In this document: one piece after another, positions 2,789 through 52,164 of the stretch
How positions within the stretch are numbered: position 1 is the first letter of the stretch
Layout of the letters: each line of letters opens with the position of its first letter
Assembly (NCBI GenBank): GCA_964291285.2
Contig: OZ219786.1
Location: 1,248,001 to 1,312,000 of the forward strand
Source of the DNA: Alphaproteobacteria bacterium
GTDB lineage: Bacteria > Pseudomonadota > Alphaproteobacteria > Bin95
Length of the DNA stretch: 64,000 nucleotides
Reading direction: 5' to 3'
Translations under genes and position numbers: made by a program
The notes under the pieces: generated by a model
What the model was told of the DNA's origin: nothing
Seen by the model: only the letters and a program-made list of their open reading frames with translations
Databases searched by the model: none

Positions 2789-5647
<2,859 letters not shown>

Positions 5648-5753: not shown

Positions 5754-6137
5754 ATGCATGTGATGGTTCACCGGTTCTGGATCGAGAAGGGGTCCTGGCC
5801 GGAGTTTCGACGCCTTTCCAGGGAAGGCGTCTGGCCGCCGATGGCGCAGCTCGGCGCGCGTATCCTCGGCTTCTATCTCGCCGAGGAGCCCGAGCCCAAT
5901 CCGGAGGTGTCCGGGGCATGCGACATGGTCTGGCTCGTAATCGCCTATGCGGACAAGGCGCATCGCGCGGCGACTCGGACCGGTTCGCCGACATTCGCCG
6001 GCTCAAGGGCGCTGCACGACCGGCTCGAGGCGGCGCGCAGGGAACGGATGAAGCTGATCCTCGCAACCAGCGATTGCTGGTGCACCCATGACGGCTCCGG
6101 GTTCATGCCGGCCCAGTGGCCGGTGGCGGAAGCCTGA
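5754..6137 (+). CDS. Small protein, probable NIPSNAP/dimeric alpha-beta barrel family
   Basis: GGAGG RBS; F-x-R-LSREGVWP-x-M-x-x-LGARILG pattern resembles NIPSNAP; by eye only. Confidence 0.5.
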   Translation: MHVMVHRFWIEKGSWPEFRRLSREGVWPPMAQLGARILGFYLAEEPEPNPEVSGACDMVWLVIAYADKAHRAATRTGSPTFAGSRALHDRLEAARRERMKLILATSDCWCTHDGSGFMPAQWPVAEA

Positions 6138-6235
6138 GCGGACGGGTTGTCTCTCACACAACACATCGGATTCGGGTTACAACATTCGCCGGATCGAGGT
6201 TGACCAGCGGGTCCGCCGCTGTCGGGAGCGCCGCC

Positions 6236-7243
6236 ATGGCAGAGTTTTCGTATCTTGCGTTTCCTGTCCCCGGGACGGCCGCGGAGACGGCGCGCAATGC
6301 CGAGGCGGCGGGCTGGGACGCTCTCGGCTTTCCCGACACGCAGAATCTGAGCGGGGACGTTTACAGCGCCCTCGCGCTGGCCGCGTCCGCGACCGACCGG
6401 CTCATGCTCGGCCCCGGCGTCACCAATCCGGTAACCCGCCACCCGGCGGTCACCGCGTCCGCCATCGCGACCATCCAGGTCGAGTCCGGCGGACGCGCCG
6501 TGCTGGGGATCGGCCGCGGCGACTCCGCGCTCGGCTATATCGGGCGCCAGCCGGCCCCGGTCAGGGTGTTCGAGCGGTATCTGCGCGATGTGCAGCATTA
6601 TCTGCGGGGCGAAGCGGTGGATATCGACGGCTATGAGAGCTGCAACAGGTGGATCGCCGCCACGGGCATGCCCAAGGTCCCGGTCGATGTCGCGGCAACG
6701 GGGCCCAGGGTCATCTCGGTGGCGGCGGTCCATGCCGAGCGGATCACCTTCGCCGTCGGCGCCGACCCCGCGCGCATCGTCGGCGCGATGCAGACGGCGC
6801 GCGCCGCGCGGGAAAGCGCGGGGCTCGACCCCGAGGAGCTTTCCTTCGGCGCCTACATCAACTGCACGGCGAATCCCGATGCGGCCAGGGCGCGCCACAT
6901 CATCAGCGGGACCGTGGGCACCTTTGCGCATTTCACGGGCATGTCCACGGCGAATTCCGAGGGCCTGAAGGACCGCGCCATCTTCGAATATATCGGCGCC
7001 AACTACGACATGCCCAACCACGCGCGAATCGCGGCCGGCCACCTGTCGGTCGTGGACGAGGATTTCATTGAGCGCTTCGCGGTTGCGGGGCCGTCCGGCT
7101 ATTGCGTGGACCGGCTCGGCCCGCTCATCGAGCTCGGGCTCGACCGGCTCGTCTTCATCACCTTCTCGTCGGACGCGGACCCTGCGGAGGTCGCCGACGG
7201 CAACGCCCGCCTGGCGGCAGAGGTATTGCCGCAGCTTCGGTGA
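6236..7243 (+). CDS. LLM-class (luciferase-like) flavin/F420-dependent oxidoreductase
   Basis: AEAAGWD-x4-PDTQNL, GPGVTNPVTRHPAV, SGGRAVLGIGRGDS, VAATGP; ATG 6236 preferred to the ORF-track start 6116. Confidence 0.88.
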   Translation: MAEFSYLAFPVPGTAAETARNAEAAGWDALGFPDTQNLSGDVYSALALAASATDRLMLGPGVTNPVTRHPAVTASAIATIQVESGGRAVLGIGRGDSALGYIGRQPAPVRVFERYLRDVQHYLRGEAVDIDGYESCNRWIAATGMPKVPVDVAATGPRVISVAAVHAERITFAVGADPARIVGAMQTARAARESAGLDPEELSFGAYINCTANPDAARARHIISGTVGTFAHFTGMSTANSEGLKDRAIFEYIGANYDMPNHARIAAGHLSVVDEDFIERFAVAGPSGYCVDRLGPLIELGLDRLVFITFSSDADPAEVADGNARLAAEVLPQLR

Positions 7244-7315
7244 AGCGCTCCGGCCTCCCGGCAGGCCTGAAGAAGCTTTTTGTTCCAAATAAATCAGAAA
7301 TAATTCAAAAAATGC

Positions 7316-7344
7316 TTGACCTCCGGAAAGCCCATGCCTAGATA
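7316..7344 (+). promoter_or_regulatory. Sigma70-like promoter with AT-rich UP element
   Basis: TTGACC-N17-TAGATA preceded by an A/T tract (7277-7313) in about 70% GC DNA. Confidence 0.5.
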
Positions 7345-7564
7345 GGTCCGAGGTGAGCGAAGTCCGCGCGGACCGCTTCCCGCCCGCGCCGGCCCGGTGC
7401 GGAACGACCCCGATTCAGCCGACAGGCGAGGTGCGTCCTGTGCCCGCCTCGCGTGCGCGCAATCAGGCGCGCGAACCGCGCCGGCGCCGACACCCGCCCG
7501 CGCCGGCACAGGCGCGCGCAGGATACGCGCGAATAAGGGTCGCTCCCCGCCGGGCCTGCCTGTC

Positions 7565-7579
7565 GAACGCCAGCGGAAC
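7565..7579 (+). promoter_or_regulatory. Alphaproteobacterial LexA (SOS) box
   Basis: Perfect GAAC-N7-GAAC (GAACGCCAGCGGAAC) immediately before RBS AAAGGAG and ATG 7600. Confidence 0.65.
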
Positions 7580-7599
7580 GAAAGGAGCCGCCGCACCCC

Positions 7600-8589
7600 A
7601 TGCCCGTCATCGACCCCGCCGTCGCGCTTTCCACCCGCCAGGAAGCCTTCTGCCGCCACTACACAGCGTCCGGCAATGCCGCAGACGCCGCAAGGCAGGC
7701 CGGCTATGCCGAGCGCTCCGCACGACAGACCGGATGCGCCCTGCTGGAGCGGCCCTACATCGTCGAGCGCGTGCGCCGCATCCGCCTGTCGTGGCGGCGC
7801 ACCGAACGCGACGAGGCCCGCATCCTGCTCGCCCGCTCGGAGCAGGCCTGGGACGCCGCCGTCGCCAGCGGCTCGGCTTACATGATGCTCCGGGTGCTGC
7901 GCTTCCAGGCCGAGATCGCCGGGCTTGTCAGTCCGGCCGGCGCGAACCGGGCCCGCCTCTGGCCGCTGCCGCACGAGGACGAGTTCGGTGAGATCGAAGC
8001 GGGCGAGGCGCAGGAGGCGGGCACCGAGCCCGGACCGCTCGCCGAGGCCGTGCGCAGCGGCCATGCCCGGGCCGAACGAGCGCTCGCCCGCCACCGCGAG
8101 CGGCGCGAGGCGATGGAGGCGCAGGAGGGCTTCGACGGGGCCGCGCACGAGGAGGACGCCCGCAGGCTCGCCGCGGCCGTCGAGGAGCGCTCCCGCCTGC
8201 CCGTCAGCTTCGGCCCCCCGCCCGCGCCGGCGAACGACCTGCCGCCAGCCGACGACCCGCCGGAGGAGACCTACGAAGACTGCCCCTGGGCCGCCGCCGA
8301 CACGCCCGGCCACGAGGACAGCACCGACGACGACCGGGCCGACGGCGCCGAACATGACTGGCTCTACCAGCGCCGCAACGGCTACGACGACATCTACGAC
8401 CCCTGGGCCCCGGAGCAGGTCGAGGAGCGCAGGCAGAGCCGCCTCGAACGGGAAGAGCGGGGCGAAGACGAAGACAACGATTGGAGCGGACCGGCGGCGA
8501 GGGGGAAGAAGCAGAAAAAGAAGAAGGGGAAGAAGCGGAGGACCGGCCCGGAGGACGCCGGTTCCGCCCCCGACCATGACAAAACATGA
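7600..8589 (+). CDS. Orphan terminase-small-subunit-like HTH protein with long acidic disordered tail and Lys-rich end
   Basis: N-terminus LSTRQEAFCRHYTASGNAADAARQAGYAERSARQTGCALLERPYIVERV matches the TerS pattern L-T-x-K-Q-x-x-F...Y...GNATQAA-x-x-AGY; good RBS; no other phage genes nearby. Confidence 0.7.
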   Translation: MPVIDPAVALSTRQEAFCRHYTASGNAADAARQAGYAERSARQTGCALLERPYIVERVRRIRLSWRRTERDEARILLARSEQAWDAAVASGSAYMMLRVLRFQAEIAGLVSPAGANRARLWPLPHEDEFGEIEAGEAQEAGTEPGPLAEAVRSGHARAERALARHRERREAMEAQEGFDGAAHEEDARRLAAAVEERSRLPVSFGPPPAPANDLPPADDPPEETYEDCPWAAADTPGHEDSTDDDRADGAEHDWLYQRRNGYDDIYDPWAPEQVEERRQSRLEREERGEDEDNDWSGPAARGKKQKKKKGKKRRTGPEDAGSAPDHDKT

Positions 8590-8607
8590 CACTTCATGAC
8601 ACTTCAC
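8575..8607. repeat. CATGACA tandem repeat, 10-bp period (3 copies plus partial)
   Basis: CATGACA at 8575, 8585 and 8595; overlaps the stop codon of the TerS-like ORF. Confidence 0.9.
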
Positions 8608-8684
8608 TGGAGTGGGCCCCTGGTCTCGGACAGTTTTGTTGTAGGAAATTGACAGGTGCGCGGTCATTGGAAGGATCGACGCCG

Positions 8685-9035
8685 ATGAGGAAGCACCGCA
8701 CGCACAGCATGGCCTTCAAGCGCCAGGTCGTTGAGGAGTATCTGGCAGGCGAGACGTTTTACGGTCTGGCCCGCCGTCATGACCTGTCTCGCACCCTGAT
8801 CCGGCTGTGGCTGGAGAAGTATGAGGCCGGGGCCTTCGATGAGGAGGCCGAGGCGGCCGACAGGCTCCGGGCATATGAGGCCCGGATCGCGACGCTCGAA
8901 CGGCTGGTCGGCCGGCAGGCCGCGGAGCTGGAGTTCCTAAAGGGGGCTTTGCGGCAAGGACGGCGGTCGAGGCGCGCGCCCATGTCCGTGATCGCCGGCC
9001 CCGAGGCCTCTCCGTCGCCGAAGGATGCCGACTGA
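8685..9035 (+). CDS. IS3 transposase OrfA (HTH)
   Basis: MRKHRTHSMAFKRQVVEEYL...LARRHDLSRTLIRLW; candidate -1 slippery site AAAGGGGG at 8939-8946. Confidence 0.88.
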   Translation: MRKHRTHSMAFKRQVVEEYLAGETFYGLARRHDLSRTLIRLWLEKYEAGAFDEEAEAADRLRAYEARIATLERLVGRQAAELEFLKGALRQGRRSRRAPMSVIAGPEASPSPKDAD

Positions 9036-9829
9036 TGGGGATCGCGCGCTCCACCTGTTACCGCGAGCCGCAGAGCCCGGTCGACGACACCGCCCTGGTC
9101 GAGGCGATGCACGAGATCAAGGACGAGTTCGAGGCCTATGGCTGGCGGCGCATGCAGGCGGAACTTCGCCACCGGGGCCGGACCGTCAACCACAAGAAGG
9201 TCAGGCGGCTGATGCGCGAACACGCCCTGCAGCCGCCGCGCAAGCGCCGCTTTGTCGCCACCACGGACAGCGGCCACGACGGGCCGGTCTTCCCGGACCG
9301 GTCCCGGGACTGCGAGGTCGAGGGCCCGAACCGGCTCTGGGTCGCCGACCTGACCTACATCGCCATCCTGGACGGCTTCGTCTATCTGGCGGCGGTCATG
9401 GACGCCTGGTCGCGCCGCATTGTCGGCTACGCGCTCGGGCAACGCATCGACGCGCGCCTGACGCTCGCGGCGCTCGACAAGGCGATCGGGAACCGAAGCC
9501 CTCAGCCCGGCTGCATCCACCACTCCGACAGGGGCTCGCAATACGCCGCCCATGCCTACCGGACCCGGCTCGACAAACACGGGATGGTCGGCTCCATGGG
9601 ACGACGAGCCAACCCCTACGACAACGCCATGATGGAGAGCTTCATGAAAACCCTGAAGGTCGAGGGCGTCTATCCCATGGCCTTCGAGACCGCCGAAGAC
9701 GTCGCAAGGCAACTGCCGCGCTTCATCGACAGCTACAACCACAGACGCCTGCACTCCGCGCTCGGATATCTGAGCCCAAACCGCTTCGAGGAAAAACAAC
9801 ATCGCAACCCTGTCAAAAATGCCGCTTGA
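9035..9829 (+). CDS. IS3 transposase OrfB (rve/DDE integrase core)
   Basis: YGWRR, WVADLTY, MDAWSRRIVG, HHSDRGSQY, DNAMMESF; -1 frame is open back to the slippery site. Confidence 0.95.
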   Translation: MGIARSTCYREPQSPVDDTALVEAMHEIKDEFEAYGWRRMQAELRHRGRTVNHKKVRRLMREHALQPPRKRRFVATTDSGHDGPVFPDRSRDCEVEGPNRLWVADLTYIAILDGFVYLAAVMDAWSRRIVGYALGQRIDARLTLAALDKAIGNRSPQPGCIHHSDRGSQYAAHAYRTRLDKHGMVGSMGRRANPYDNAMMESFMKTLKVEGVYPMAFETAEDVARQLPRFIDSYNHRRLHSALGYLSPNRFEEKQHRNPVKNAA

Positions 9830-9932
9830 AACTGTCCGACCCAAGGGGCCCACTCCACACGGGGTGCATGGCCCGGGGACCTTTCCGCCGGCTTCGACGA
9901 GGGGCGCTGCGAGCGGCCGGAGGGGGGACAAA

Positions 9933-9947
9933 GTTACCCATTCGTTC
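9933..9947 (+). promoter_or_regulatory. Possible LexA box upstream of ssb
   Basis: GTTA-N7-GTTC, one mismatch to GTTC-N7-GTTC; ssb and uvrA are common SOS genes. Confidence 0.4.
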
Positions 9948-9964
9948 CACAGGCCCTCGGCCCT

Positions 9965-9990
9965 CGGCCGGTCGCTTCGGCGGCCGGCCG
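9965..9990 (+). other. Strong stem-loop with UUCG tetraloop
   Basis: CGGCCGGTCGC-TTCG-GCGGCCGGCCG, 11-bp stem with one G-U pair. Confidence 0.6.
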
Positions 9991-10034
9991 GGTGTATGTT
10001 CCGGGGGGCGAATCGGGTGTAAGGAACAACGGTT

Positions 10035-10508
10035 ATGGCAGGCAGCGTCAACAAGGTGATTCTGGTCGGGAATCTGGGCCGCGACCCCGAGGTCCGGACC
10101 CTGCAGTCGGGCGACAAGGTTGCGAATCTGTCCTTGGCGACCTCGGAAACCTGGAGCGACCGGCAGTCCGGCGAGCGGCGCGAGCGCACGGAGTGGCACC
10201 GGGTCGTCATTTTCGGGCGTGTGGCGGACGTCGCCGAGCAGTATCTCCGCAAGGGCTCAAAGGTGTATATCGAAGGCAGCCTCCAGACGCGCAAATGGCA
10301 GGACCAGTCCGGCCAGGACCGCTACTCGACCGAAGTGGTGCTGTCGGGGCCGAGGGGCCAGATGACAATGCTCGACAGCCGGGCCGACGACGGCGGCGGC
10401 TATGGCGGCCGCGGCGGAGGTTACGACGACCGGGATGCGGGCGGCGGCAGGTCCGCGGCACCGGCGCCGGCGCTCGGCTCCGACCTGGACGACGACATCC
10501 CGTTCTGA
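10035..10508 (+). CDS. ssb: Single-stranded DNA-binding protein
   Basis: [19 protein letters not shown]; C-terminal DDDIPF. Confidence 0.98.
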
Positions 10509-51683: not shown

Positions 51684-51996
51684 CAGCGCAGCGTCCGGAT
51701 CTTCGCCAGCCCGATCAAGGGGGTAGGTCGGCACTACAAGCCGGTCCCGAGAGGTACTGCACCGAAATCCGACACTTCTCGCGCCGGAAAACCGTCAAAT
51801 CAGTCGATTCTCAAGCCGAGTTGCGGAAGTCGGGTTAGGGTCCCGCCGGTCGGGCAAGCCGGCGGCGGGAAGATCAGAATGAAGACCGATCGGGAGGACA
51901 GGCCCATGCCGAAGACACGAAGCCGGAGAGCCCGGATGCAGTACCCGGAGCCCATACCCGAACAGGATACAGGATATGAACATTGCGCATGCGGAT

Positions 51997-52065
51997 CATG
52001 ACATTTCATGACGCATACCGCTGGGTCCTGCCGGCGCGCATGACAAAACATGACATCCCATGACA
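51997..52065. repeat. CATGACA repeats, 10-bp period (2 + 3 copies)
   Basis: CATGAC(A/G) at 51997, 52007, 52039, 52049 and 52059; CATGACAAAACATGACA is identical to 8575-8591. Confidence 0.9.
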
Positions 52066-52164
52066 CCCCCGGCGGATCGTTTCGCCTTCTCGGGCCCTTG
52101 CCCGGCAGGTCCGGGAGGGAGAGCGCCGGCTCGCCTTGACAAGAGGGGAAGCGCCCGGCTAACC

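Follow-up and report, generated by a model that had tools for sequence, protein, structure and literature searches.

The window, i.e., the whole stretch of 64,000 nucleotides analysed here, derives from the genome of an uncultured alphaproteobacterium, and positions given below are counted from its first letter. The stretch between positions 7278 and 8601 is best explained as a single copy of a small cassette, in which a promoter of the sigma-70 type is followed by a GC-rich leader derived from a repeat, a LexA-type operator plus ribosome-binding site, a gene resembling those of phage small terminase subunits (TerS), and an array of CATGACA repeats placed one per helical turn. The features of the cassette and of the element that lies behind it are as follows:

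7278..7344, + strand: AT-rich promoter region and start of the repeated 5' module, delineated by similarity among copies and by the hexamers
7316-7321, + strand: -35 hexamer TTGACC, read from the sequence
7339-7344, + strand: -10 hexamer TAGATA, after a 17-nt spacer behind the -35 hexamer
7345..7555, + strand: GC-rich leader, which together with the promoter makes up a 5' module with 91 copies in the genome
7565-7579, + strand: LexA-type box GAAC-N7-GAAC, GAACGCCAGCGGAAC, 2 nt ahead of the ribosome-binding site AAGGAG
7582-7587, + strand: ribosome-binding site AAGGAG, read from the sequence and conserved among copies
7600-8589, + strand: TerS-like ORF of 329 aa, with its ATG at 7600 and with Pfam, PHROG, PDB profile, and Foldseek matches
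8575..8601, + strand: three CATGACA repeats with an exact 10-bp period (starts at 8575, 8585, and 8595), with which the repeated unit ends on its 3' side
8608-9857 (8605..9860 with its target duplications), + strand: IS3-family insertion sequence, directly behind the CATGACA repeats

When checked against the window sequence, all features that a first-pass annotation had listed were present where it had placed them: the promoter TTGACC-N17-TAGATA, a GC-rich leader of about 255 nt (~250 nt of GC-rich DNA precede the ATG), the perfect GAAC-N7-GAAC beside the ribosome-binding site, the 329-aa ORF with an acidic, Pro-rich tail and a Lys run, and the 10-bp-phased CATGACA repeats over the stop codon (8587-8589), which lies inside the second CATGACA copy. 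A strict promoter scan calls no promoter at 7278..7344, because TAGATA agrees with TATAAT at only three of six positions. Better hexamers (TTGCAT or TTGCGT, N17, TATGAT or TACAAT) occur in seven of the ten full copies of this gene in the genome, and within the 5' module the promoter hexamers rank with the most conserved columns.

The IS3-family element, which the first-pass annotation overlooked despite its rve transposase, is a later insertion and not a part of the cassette. It has 29-nt inverted repeats of the TG...CA type, an orfA (8685-9035; Pfam HTH_Tnp_1) and an orfB (9035-9829; Pfam rve), and lies between the two halves of a target duplication of 3 bp, CAC (8605-8607 and 9858-9860). All eight full copies of this insertion sequence in the genome adjoin a CATGAC array, each with a 3-bp duplication, and this strict target choice makes the array a testable site of protein-DNA recognition.

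The first ~115 residues of the 329-aa protein are, by homology, the DNA-binding and helical core of a small terminase of the SPP1/SF6 type, which bears out an earlier assignment of its N-terminus as a TerS-type HTH. The profile of the Pfam family Terminase_2 (PF03592) is matched at 45.2 bits, above the curated cut-off of 26.1, by the N-terminal HTH domain only (residues 11-71); PHROG 51 ('terminase small subunit') is matched at an E-value of 1e-12, and PDB profile matches include 4zc3 and 2cmp (both at 6e-6) as well as 3zqp. The AF2 model has a pLDDT of >90 at residues 11-60 and of 80-85 for the helices predicted to follow the DNA-binding domain (residues 52-90 and 93-107), and the best Foldseek matches of the model are to SF6 TerS, with a TM score of 0.85 between the predicted structure and the SF6 DNA-binding domain. 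Ordinary TerS-sized proteins (120-260 aa) align to residues ~5-120. The HTH and helical hairpin occupy residues ~11-107; behind them come an extension specific to the clade, in which some motifs are conserved (one at residues ~250-275), and the variable tail. In small terminases of this type, the helical core after the DNA-binding domain is the oligomerisation part, from which rings of 8-12 subunits form. The C-terminal extension of ~210 aa has no known counterpart in the searches made; ESM Atlas scores of 0.77 for residues 116-329, and of 0.85 for the type B protein introduced below, serve as leads only. Domain searches detected neither a nuclease nor a recombinase in the TerS-like protein, and PADLOC returned no match. 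Residues 1-290 are under purifying selection, with dN/dS of 0.10-0.49 across residues 1-200.

Genome-wide, the motif CATGAC-N4-CATGAC occurs 275 times, compared with ~2.2 expected, and there are 113 CATGAC arrays at a 10-bp phase; the spacings (10, 21, and 31-33 bp) correspond to whole helical turns. Among 37 genomes from the order, 11 contain the gene (E<=1e-60); each of these 11 also has arrays, and none of the 37 has the gene without them. In at least two further genera as well, phased TGAC repeats follow or overlap the stop codon. The link between gene and phased repeats, for which the first-pass annotation had proposed a genome-wide co-occurrence check, holds across genera. Array orientation has no bias relative to replication skew. 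Downstream host genes that appeared to start at an array ATG were dropped as an artefact of ORF finding, because TGA as well as ATG occurs in every reading frame of the array.

The direct repeat GAAC-N7-GAAC (GTTC-N7-GTTC) is the motif of the alphaproteobacterial LexA regulon. One such box was found in the 64 kb, compared with 1.38 expected by chance; its weight comes from conservation across the family. All ten full copies of this genome have a perfect box; among 83 family genes, 48 have a perfect box and 20 have one with a single mismatch. There are 17 different spacers, the position is fixed (-35 to -27 relative to the ATG), and a control found the box in 12 of 20,000 random 60-nt windows. 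A perfect GAAC-N7-GAAC is also present at the lexA promoter of this genome (gene at G000:C3:~1242750), and at the recA promoter there is a box with one mismatch. The exact motif, kept with varied spacers across genera and shared with the organism's own lexA, is thus likely a LexA-type operator before the TerS-like gene, as had been suggested, and we infer from these sequence features that LexA may control the gene. In this genus, the arrangement differs from the regulon in that the box lies ~220 nt downstream of the -10 hexamer, which is not the classical operator position over the promoter; in other genera it lies directly behind the -10 hexamer (within ~10 nt). At the level of abstracts, a literature search found no report of a terS-like gene as an alphaproteobacterial LexA target.

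The gene had been described as an orphan and a stand-alone TerS, and its multicopy state was missed. It is one of ten full, near-identical copies in the genome, which also has eight N-terminal remnants, and belongs to a family of ~91 units. Units with the common promoter and GC-rich leader were counted by nhmmer (97 matches, 91 of them longer than 100 nt); similarity of the ten full copies and the 91 units starts near 7278-7290, and inter-copy similarity stops a few bases past the last CATGACA repeat. With ten near-identical copies and about ninety cassettes, this is therefore a repeat element and not a lone orphan. Nor is the leader a private 5' UTR, as had been supposed: promoter and leader form a repeat module that is absent from relatives in other genera. 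No recognisable ORF is present in 58 of the 91 units, yet promoter, leader, and arrays are kept, so that the arrays may have functions other than serving the protein. The same 5' and 3' modules also enclose another cargo protein (type B), which is not related to the first; BLASTP of the TerS-like protein (type A) against type B finds only the array-encoded C-terminus in common, and a Foldseek search with the type B protein gave nothing below an E-value of 0.38. With its roughly ninety small cassettes in an uncultured bacterium, the family constitutes an undescribed kind of repeat element; within the listings and abstracts returned by a full-text literature search, no description of such an element was found.

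REP/BIME-RAYT systems and MITEs such as Correia elements are intergenic repeat families with a master gene. The cassettes resemble them in that a genome has ~90 copies between its genes, which point either way, many of them internally deleted and some with a promoter; unit orientation relative to flanking genes has no bias (upstream genes 42 +/47 -, downstream genes 46 +/35 -). Unlike these families, the cassettes have two dissimilar ends, encode a protein that is not a transposase, and are often orthologous between species. The hallmarks of a MITE or DDE transposon (terminal inverted repeats together with a target duplication) are missing: no target-site duplications were detected, flank-to-flank shared words averaging 7.79 nt compared with a null value of 7.66 nt (56 units), and none of the 25 longest inverted pairs of positions 7200-10100 joins the unit ends.

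The ORF-less units and the unrelated type B cargo would fit an alternative in which the protein is a passive passenger, i.e., a remnant phage terS caught in a REP/MITE-like family that another enzyme (e.g., a tyrosine recombinase or an IS transposase) amplifies in trans, with the arrays as the sites of that enzyme and the protein having no role. Candidate enzymes exist in the 115 tyrosine-recombinase matches of the genome (none in the window) and in the IS3-family element, which recognises array ends; two viral contigs, one with a CATGACA array after an integrase gene and the other after an HTH_17 gene, also agree with this explanation. We regard it as improbable, given the purifying selection on residues 1-290, a box and a gene-array link that are kept even in genera lacking the 5' module, and the missing target duplications and end-joining inverted pairs.

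Cassette copies are found at orthologous loci in different species (loci L001-L008 are collinear and not reoriented), and since many units are orthologous between species, movement is rare. The gene copies nevertheless cluster by genome, with six of seven genomes monophyletic, and this combination indicates that the copies evolve in concert. At the locus of this window, a unit lacking the ORF lies between identical flanking sequences in one relative, so that two species have the coding and the ORF-less form at one and the same locus.

Conservation within the unit is highest in the leader core, and the leader folds better than shuffled sequences on both strands (z of -3.5 and -3.7). Along with the conserved promoter hexamers of the 5' module and the coverage of the leader core by contigs from an RNA library of a sponge metagenome, these features could suggest that each unit is a promoter-driven gene for a small RNA (the leader, perhaps with the array region), in which case the TerS-like protein would be a DNA-binding regulator or autoregulator of ~90 promoters. 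Such an RNA product is quite improbable, however: the two strands fold equally well, no Rfam family matches positions 7200-8700, and the consensus structures from RNAalifold (-12.9 kcal/mol for 80 copies, -10.7 kcal/mol for 74 copies) contain almost no covarying pairs (0-1 pairs with two Watson-Crick types). In addition, other genera retain the TerS-like gene, the box, and the arrays but lack the leader. The contigs of the RNA library, from which strand, start, and induction are not readable, cover leader and ORF alike, at a leader-to-ORF depth ratio close to the DNA copy ratio; because these are contigs only and the library possibly contains DNA, the support that they lend to our main reading (below) is weak.

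The window was earlier described as having no terL, portal, capsid, or integrase gene, and genome-wide searches with PF03237, PF03354, PF04466, PF20441, PF05065, PF04860, and PF00589 agree in giving no match inside it (C2:1248001-1312000); the packaging module of a small terminase, with TerL, portal, or capsid families, is thus lacking there. A single, divergent TerL-like gene is present elsewhere in the genome (G000); one cassette copy lies 13 kb away from it, and the other copies are unlinked to it. A GTA-like link to the genome's one phage-like island was considered and rejected, as this TerL-like gene occurs in four of 17 genomes of the genus, compared with 11 that have cassettes, and does not co-occur with them. 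Large terminase genes are sporadic in the genus, and none was found by PF20441, PF03237, or PF03354 in several genomes with 7-11 copies, e.g., G012 and G007. Among the viral sequences of IMG/VR, there is no full-length relative of the protein, and 46 loci are similar in the HTH region only. A triple CATGAC array is present in 27 viral contigs, mostly as perfect tandem 10-mers in low-GC contigs. In a high-GC viral contig (L179), the array overlaps the end of an HTH_17 gene, including its stop codon, and this gene lies ~1 kb upstream of terS-terL; its 64-aa product is unrelated to the TerS-like protein.

In small terminases of the SPP1/SF6 type, the pac site lies in or beside the gene itself and is built of short phased repeats. 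The cassette shares with these terminases (G1P, Terminase_2) a homologous N-terminal HTH followed by a helical hairpin, and has short phased repeats at its own gene's end. It is unlike them in that no large terminase, portal, or capsid gene is adjacent, in the ~210 aa of additional C-terminal region, the ten chromosomal copies, and the ~110 arrays, as well as in the LexA-type box before the gene and the absence of full-length relatives from viral contigs.

Our main reading, to which we assign a probability of roughly 40%, is that an SOS-induced TerS-like protein binds its own phased arrays and hijacks the large terminase of a phage. DNA damage or phage attack would inactivate LexA, and the TerS-like protein would then be made. 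By analogy with SPP1/SF6-type small terminases, it would assemble on the phased repeats beside its own gene and on ~110 other arrays, and the bound protein could recruit the large terminase that a headful phage, either infecting or induced, supplies. DNA packaging would then begin at the cassettes, and the outcome may be the export of the cassette and adjacent host DNA in phage particles, or a phage starved of its terminase (i.e., defence), or both. The shared 5' module and 3' array could serve as homology arms, either in a recipient or within one genome, such that a coding form would replace ORF-less forms by recombination; homologous replacement of this kind would explain both the concerted evolution and the missing transposon hallmarks. 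That the protein binds the arrays, that it engages a terminase, and how the cassette spreads are steps that we infer. In favour of the reading are the TerS homology, the conserved box, the phased arrays and their co-occurrence with the gene, the purifying selection, the concerted evolution, and the ORF-less unit of a relative at the locus of the window. Against it stand the cassette-rich genomes in which those profiles found no large terminase, the lack of full-length relatives in IMG/VR, the place of the box in this genus, the units with no ORF, the many orthologous units, and a C-terminal extension with no known counterpart.

Phage satellites (SaPI/PICI, in operon I, and PICMI-type minimalist islands) carry their own TerS under SOS control. 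The cassette is like them in having a terS-like gene outside a phage, behind a LexA-type operator and next to a putative cognate site, and the proposed redirection of a helper's large terminase would follow the same logic. It differs from SaPI/PICI satellites in consisting of a single ORF, with no integrase, replication, or repressor genes, and in its size of 1.3 kb rather than 5-15 kb. In addition, it is multicopy, has ORF-less derivatives, and evolves in concert at fixed loci, and no helper phage is known.

A role independent of terminases is an alternative: the SOS-induced complex of protein and array may stimulate recombination or gene conversion between cassettes, acting as a selfish 'conversion driver', or may mark or organise ~110 chromosomal sites during DNA damage. 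The clustering by genome of copies at orthologous loci and the occurrence of coding and ORF-less forms at one locus in two species would both fit such a role, as would the many host genomes with no detectable TerL, the coincidence of SOS control with RecA activity, and the resemblance of the conserved C-terminal motifs to partner-binding segments. On the other hand, the protein has no detected nuclease or recombinase domain, concerted evolution needs no dedicated protein, and the arrays have no orientation bias relative to replication, and we consider this alternative unlikely.

The reading in which a phage terminase is hijacked can be extended to a new class of minimal 'pac cassette', although in this full form it is rather doubtful. 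With neither integrase nor transposase, an SOS-triggered TerS derivative and a phased array, set at ~100 chromosomal landing pads, would make a compatible headful phage transduce the cassette along with the host genome, or would block the phage, and the cassette would multiply without transposing, as homologous recombination puts it in the place of empty pads.

If the protein does bind the arrays and engage phage terminases, the cassette would be the smallest known packaging-hijack unit, and would provide a means by which a bacterium, or a selfish cassette, could scatter packaging start sites throughout a genome. This would bear on gene transfer and phage defence in uncultured symbionts. Irrespective of what it does, the family clearly exemplifies concerted evolution in a dispersed, protein-coding repeat.

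All features listed for positions 7277-8607 in the first-pass annotation are present in the sequence, and the observation itself is confirmed; the interpretation attached to it, a LexA-controlled orphan terS gene as a candidate packaging-hijack element, is only partly supported. The description did not include the IS3-family element behind the gene. The copy and its surroundings are organized as follows:

2789-5647, minus strand: uvrA, neighbor gene
6116-7243: luciferase-like monooxygenase, neighbor gene
7316-7321 and 7339-7344, plus strand: promoter region in AT-rich sequence (-35 TTGACC, 17-nt spacer, TAGATA)
downstream of the promoter, plus strand: GC-rich leader of ~250 nt (sequence reading)
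7565-7579, plus strand: LexA-type box, GAACGCCAGCGGAAC
7582-7587, plus strand: AAGGAG, ribosome-binding site (sequence reading)
7600-8589, plus strand: TerS-like ORF, 329 aa
8575, 8585 and 8595, plus strand: CATGACA repeats, the stop codon lying within the second
8608-9857: IS3-family element directly behind the repeats, bounded by 29-nt inverted repeats and a 3-bp CAC duplication, and carrying HTH_Tnp_1 and rve genes
10035-10508: ssb, neighbor gene; gyrA is also nearby
51988-52066: solo bipartite CATGAC array (two motifs, spacer, three motifs), with no 5' module detected upstream

A strict promoter scan reported no promoter at the window copy, the -10 hexamer of which is weak.

The proposed TerS-type HTH N-terminus is borne out by matches to Pfam Terminase_2 (residues 11-71; 45.2 bits against a cut-off of 26.1), to PHROG 51 "terminase small subunit" (E 1e-12), and to SF6 structures: a 36-member family profile recovers only SF6 small-terminase structures from the PDB (4zc3, 2cmp, 3zqp), and the top Foldseek matches are the SF6 DNA-binding domain (TM 0.85) and a full SF6-like subunit. 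In the AF2 model, pLDDT is above 90 for the HTH (residues 11-60) and 80-85 for helices 52-90 and 93-107, while helices 146-199 are modeled with moderate confidence and the rest with low. Among 1.84 billion representatives, the 44 clusters found at E<1e-30 all belong to the protein's own clade, and the weaker matches are proteins of 120-260 aa that align to residues ~5-120, which argues that the first ~115 residues form a complete TerS core and that the remainder is clade-specific. In the family alignment, invariant residues extend to ~200 and conserved motifs lie near 216-225 and 250-275, before a tail that varies; only some members have the Lys run. Comparing one copy from the window's own genome (G000) with six other genomes, dN/dS is 0.12-0.24 for residues 1-71, 0.10-0.49 for 72-115, 0.18-0.36 for 116-200, and 0.31-0.68 for 201-290, and the tail is either at about 1 or unalignable. 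No further Pfam domain was found in this protein or its longer relatives, PADLOC returned no match for it, and IMG/VR holds HTH-level relatives only.

The gene is not an orphan. G000 (6.1 Mb, five contigs, 68% G+C, 100% complete) carries ten full copies (292 or more of the 329 residues, 83-100% identity) spread over four contigs, as well as eight N-terminal remnants. Similarity among the ten begins in the AT-rich region near 7280 and ends a few bases past the last CATGACA. The GC-rich leader noted at first reading is real, but is part of a repeated module: promoter and leader (7278-7555) have 97 nhmmer matches in G000, of which 91 exceed 100 nt, and CATGACA repeats follow within 2.5 kb downstream in 83 of these 91. 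Sorted by simple start-motif matching, the 91 units comprise 10 with a full TerS-like gene, 5 with its remnant, 5 with a second cargo protein, type B, in its long form (192-241 aa), 13 with a type B remnant, and 58 with neither; their orientation is unbiased with respect to flanking genes and to replication. Type B (locus L099, 787-1362, and relatives) is a conserved family of its own, with 173 homologs in the same genome group; it shares the promoter-leader and array modules with the TerS-like genes, and the proteins have only the array-encoded C-terminus in common. It has no Pfam match, and a fold search with its AF2 model (pLDDT 80; two long helices, then two beta-hairpin-plus-helix units) found no matching fold. 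A reading of the TerS-like gene as a passenger in a repeat family, which we consider improbable, would suit the predominance of ORF-less units, the presence of a second cargo type, and the many recombinases of G000. The tyrosine recombinase profile PF00589 has 115 matches in this genome, many of them within near-identical multicopy elements that lie side by side in twos or threes.

The arrays are themselves strongly over-represented, with 275 occurrences of CATGAC-N4-CATGAC in G000 against ~2.2 expected from the single-motif count. These form 113 loci, 94 downstream of a same-strand 5' module and 19 solo. The distance between neighboring motifs is 10 bp in 275 cases, 21 bp in 31, 33 bp in 23, 24 bp in 13, and 31 bp in 10; most of these distances equal whole helical turns, an indication of recognition on DNA rather than RNA. 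A reading centered on RNA we rate slightly below the passenger reading. Contigs of an RNA library labeled "sponge metagenome" match the leader core and the ORF, a weak sign of transcription, given that leader and ORF differ in depth about as they do in DNA copy number and that neither strand nor ends can be read from the contigs. Elsewhere, in an IMG/VR contig of 64% G+C (L179:11056-13566), a 64-aa HTH_17 gene, located between a replication gene and a block of ParB-methylase, terS, and terL, has a triple CATGACA array across its stop codon; the stop-codon anatomy is like that of the window, and the protein is unrelated. A similar array lies downstream of an integrase gene in L193.

Gene and array co-occur, a link that the first-pass annotation had proposed to test. 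Across 37 genomes of the order including G000, whose mutual relatedness reduces the co-occurrence to few independent events, triple arrays occur in 14, all in the window's genus, and the gene (E<=1e-60) in 11, all 11 with arrays. The array genomes lacking a full gene are two fragmented assemblies with gene pieces and G008, with only nine arrays; both features are absent from three complete genomes of the genus and from all 20 of two sister genera. In distant genera (45-60% identity, also multicopy), the stop codon is overlapped or trailed by three to six copies of NNTGACNNNT at a 10-bp period, and the three most distant loci have no such repeats there. The gene-array link is old. Other short repeats abundant in related genera occur in the upstream regions of L083-L098, where a palindrome of ~30 nt with a GGGAGGGTTTCAAACCCTCCC core precedes several TerS-like genes.

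The LexA-type box is perfect in all ten full G000 copies. In 83 distinct family genes whose start could be identified, from G000 and loci of other genomes, it is perfect in 48, has one mismatch in 20, and is worse in 15; the 48 perfect ones, with 17 different spacers among them, begin 27-35 nt upstream of the ATG, and the motif occurs in 12 of 20000 random 60-nt windows. The G000 lexA promoter has a perfect GAAC-N7-GAAC, and that of recA GTTC-N7-ATTC. The distant genera lack the GC-rich leader and have a -35/-10 pair, a perfect box within ~10 nt, then RBS and ATG; this is a classical operator position. A LexA-type operator is likely, since the box is kept across genera, but in the window's genus ~210 nt now separate it from the -10 hexamer upstream, which is no classical operator position. 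Within the 64-kb window, one GAAC-N7-GAAC was found against 1.38 expected, i.e., chance level; it is the one preceding the TerS-like gene, and neither uvrA nor ssb, both usual SOS genes, has a perfect motif in this stretch.

Profile searches of G000 with Terminase_6N, TerL_ATPase, and Terminase_3 gave no match. The only TerL-like gene recognized encodes a 527-aa protein with a weak TerL-nuclease match (C2:89782-91365; PF20441 at 25 bits), in a phage- or satellite-like island (C2:85332-96254, minus strand; L165:8333-19255) 13 kb from one cassette copy. The island also encodes portal-like (371 aa), capsid-like (454 aa), HNH (105 aa), and DUF5906 proteins and a tyrosine integrase, and no small terminase was recognized in it. 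Of the 17 genomes of the genus, 4 encode relatives of this TerL, as do two genomes from other genera; PF20441 and PF03237 are each found in 3 of the 17 and PF03354 in none (PF04466 was searched in G000 only). Since TerL is sporadic, and G012 and G007, two related genomes with 7-11 cassette copies, have none of the three families, the cassettes do not depend on a resident terminase. The main rival explanation is action without any terminase, e.g., promoting recombination between cassettes; we regard it as rather unlikely.

The IS3-family element shows strict target choice. In all eight full-length G000 copies an IS tip lies within ~6 nt of a CATGAC array, at its downstream end in seven cases and at its upstream end in one, and every copy is flanked by a 3-bp duplication of its own. 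Of two half copies, one also borders an array. Behind other arrays, an example from another genus (L085) among them, there are diverged IS3-like ends and solo inverted repeats. TTGACAGG, which resembles the array core, lies ~40 bp inside both IS ends. Four units have one and the same 599-aa ORF, by appearance an IS transposase, ~100 nt past the leader, and in another four a different shared insert occupies a fixed position; the units concerned include those at C1:257680, C3:941055, C4:199590, and C3:195926. Other mobile elements thus also land at fixed cassette points.

Several copies occupy orthologous loci in different species: both flanks are common to the G000 copy at C1:388 kb, L038, and L084, to the copy at C2:76 kb and L057, to L019 and L041, and to L034 and L044. 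Yet a tree of 50 copies from seven genomes clusters by genome (six of seven monophyletic, support 95-100), as expected of copies that evolve in concert through gene conversion or are repeatedly replaced. At the window locus, the monooxygenase stop codon directly precedes the ssb upstream region in the relatives G006 and G014, G016 has an ORF-less unit between the same flanks, and G010 and G015 have arrays only. An imperfect repeat of ~18 nt of the left junction in the G000 right flank (12 of 18 positions) is as compatible with deletion between short repeats as with insertion. Target duplications were not found in 56 units (longest flank-flank word, mean 7.79 nt against 7.66 in mismatched pairs), nor was an inverted repeat joining the two ends of the unit.

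Literature searches, at the level of listings and abstracts, found no description of such a TerS-like cassette. The element is a variant of terS-based hijackers or of repeat elements, and any hijacking function is putative. The unit conserved across genera comprises promoter, LexA-type box, TerS-core protein, and phased array. In the most economical mechanism, the one used by its homologs, to which we assign a probability of about 0.4, an oligomeric small-terminase-like protein would be made on SOS induction, would bind the phased repeats beside its own gene and elsewhere, and, once bound, would engage a phage large terminase.
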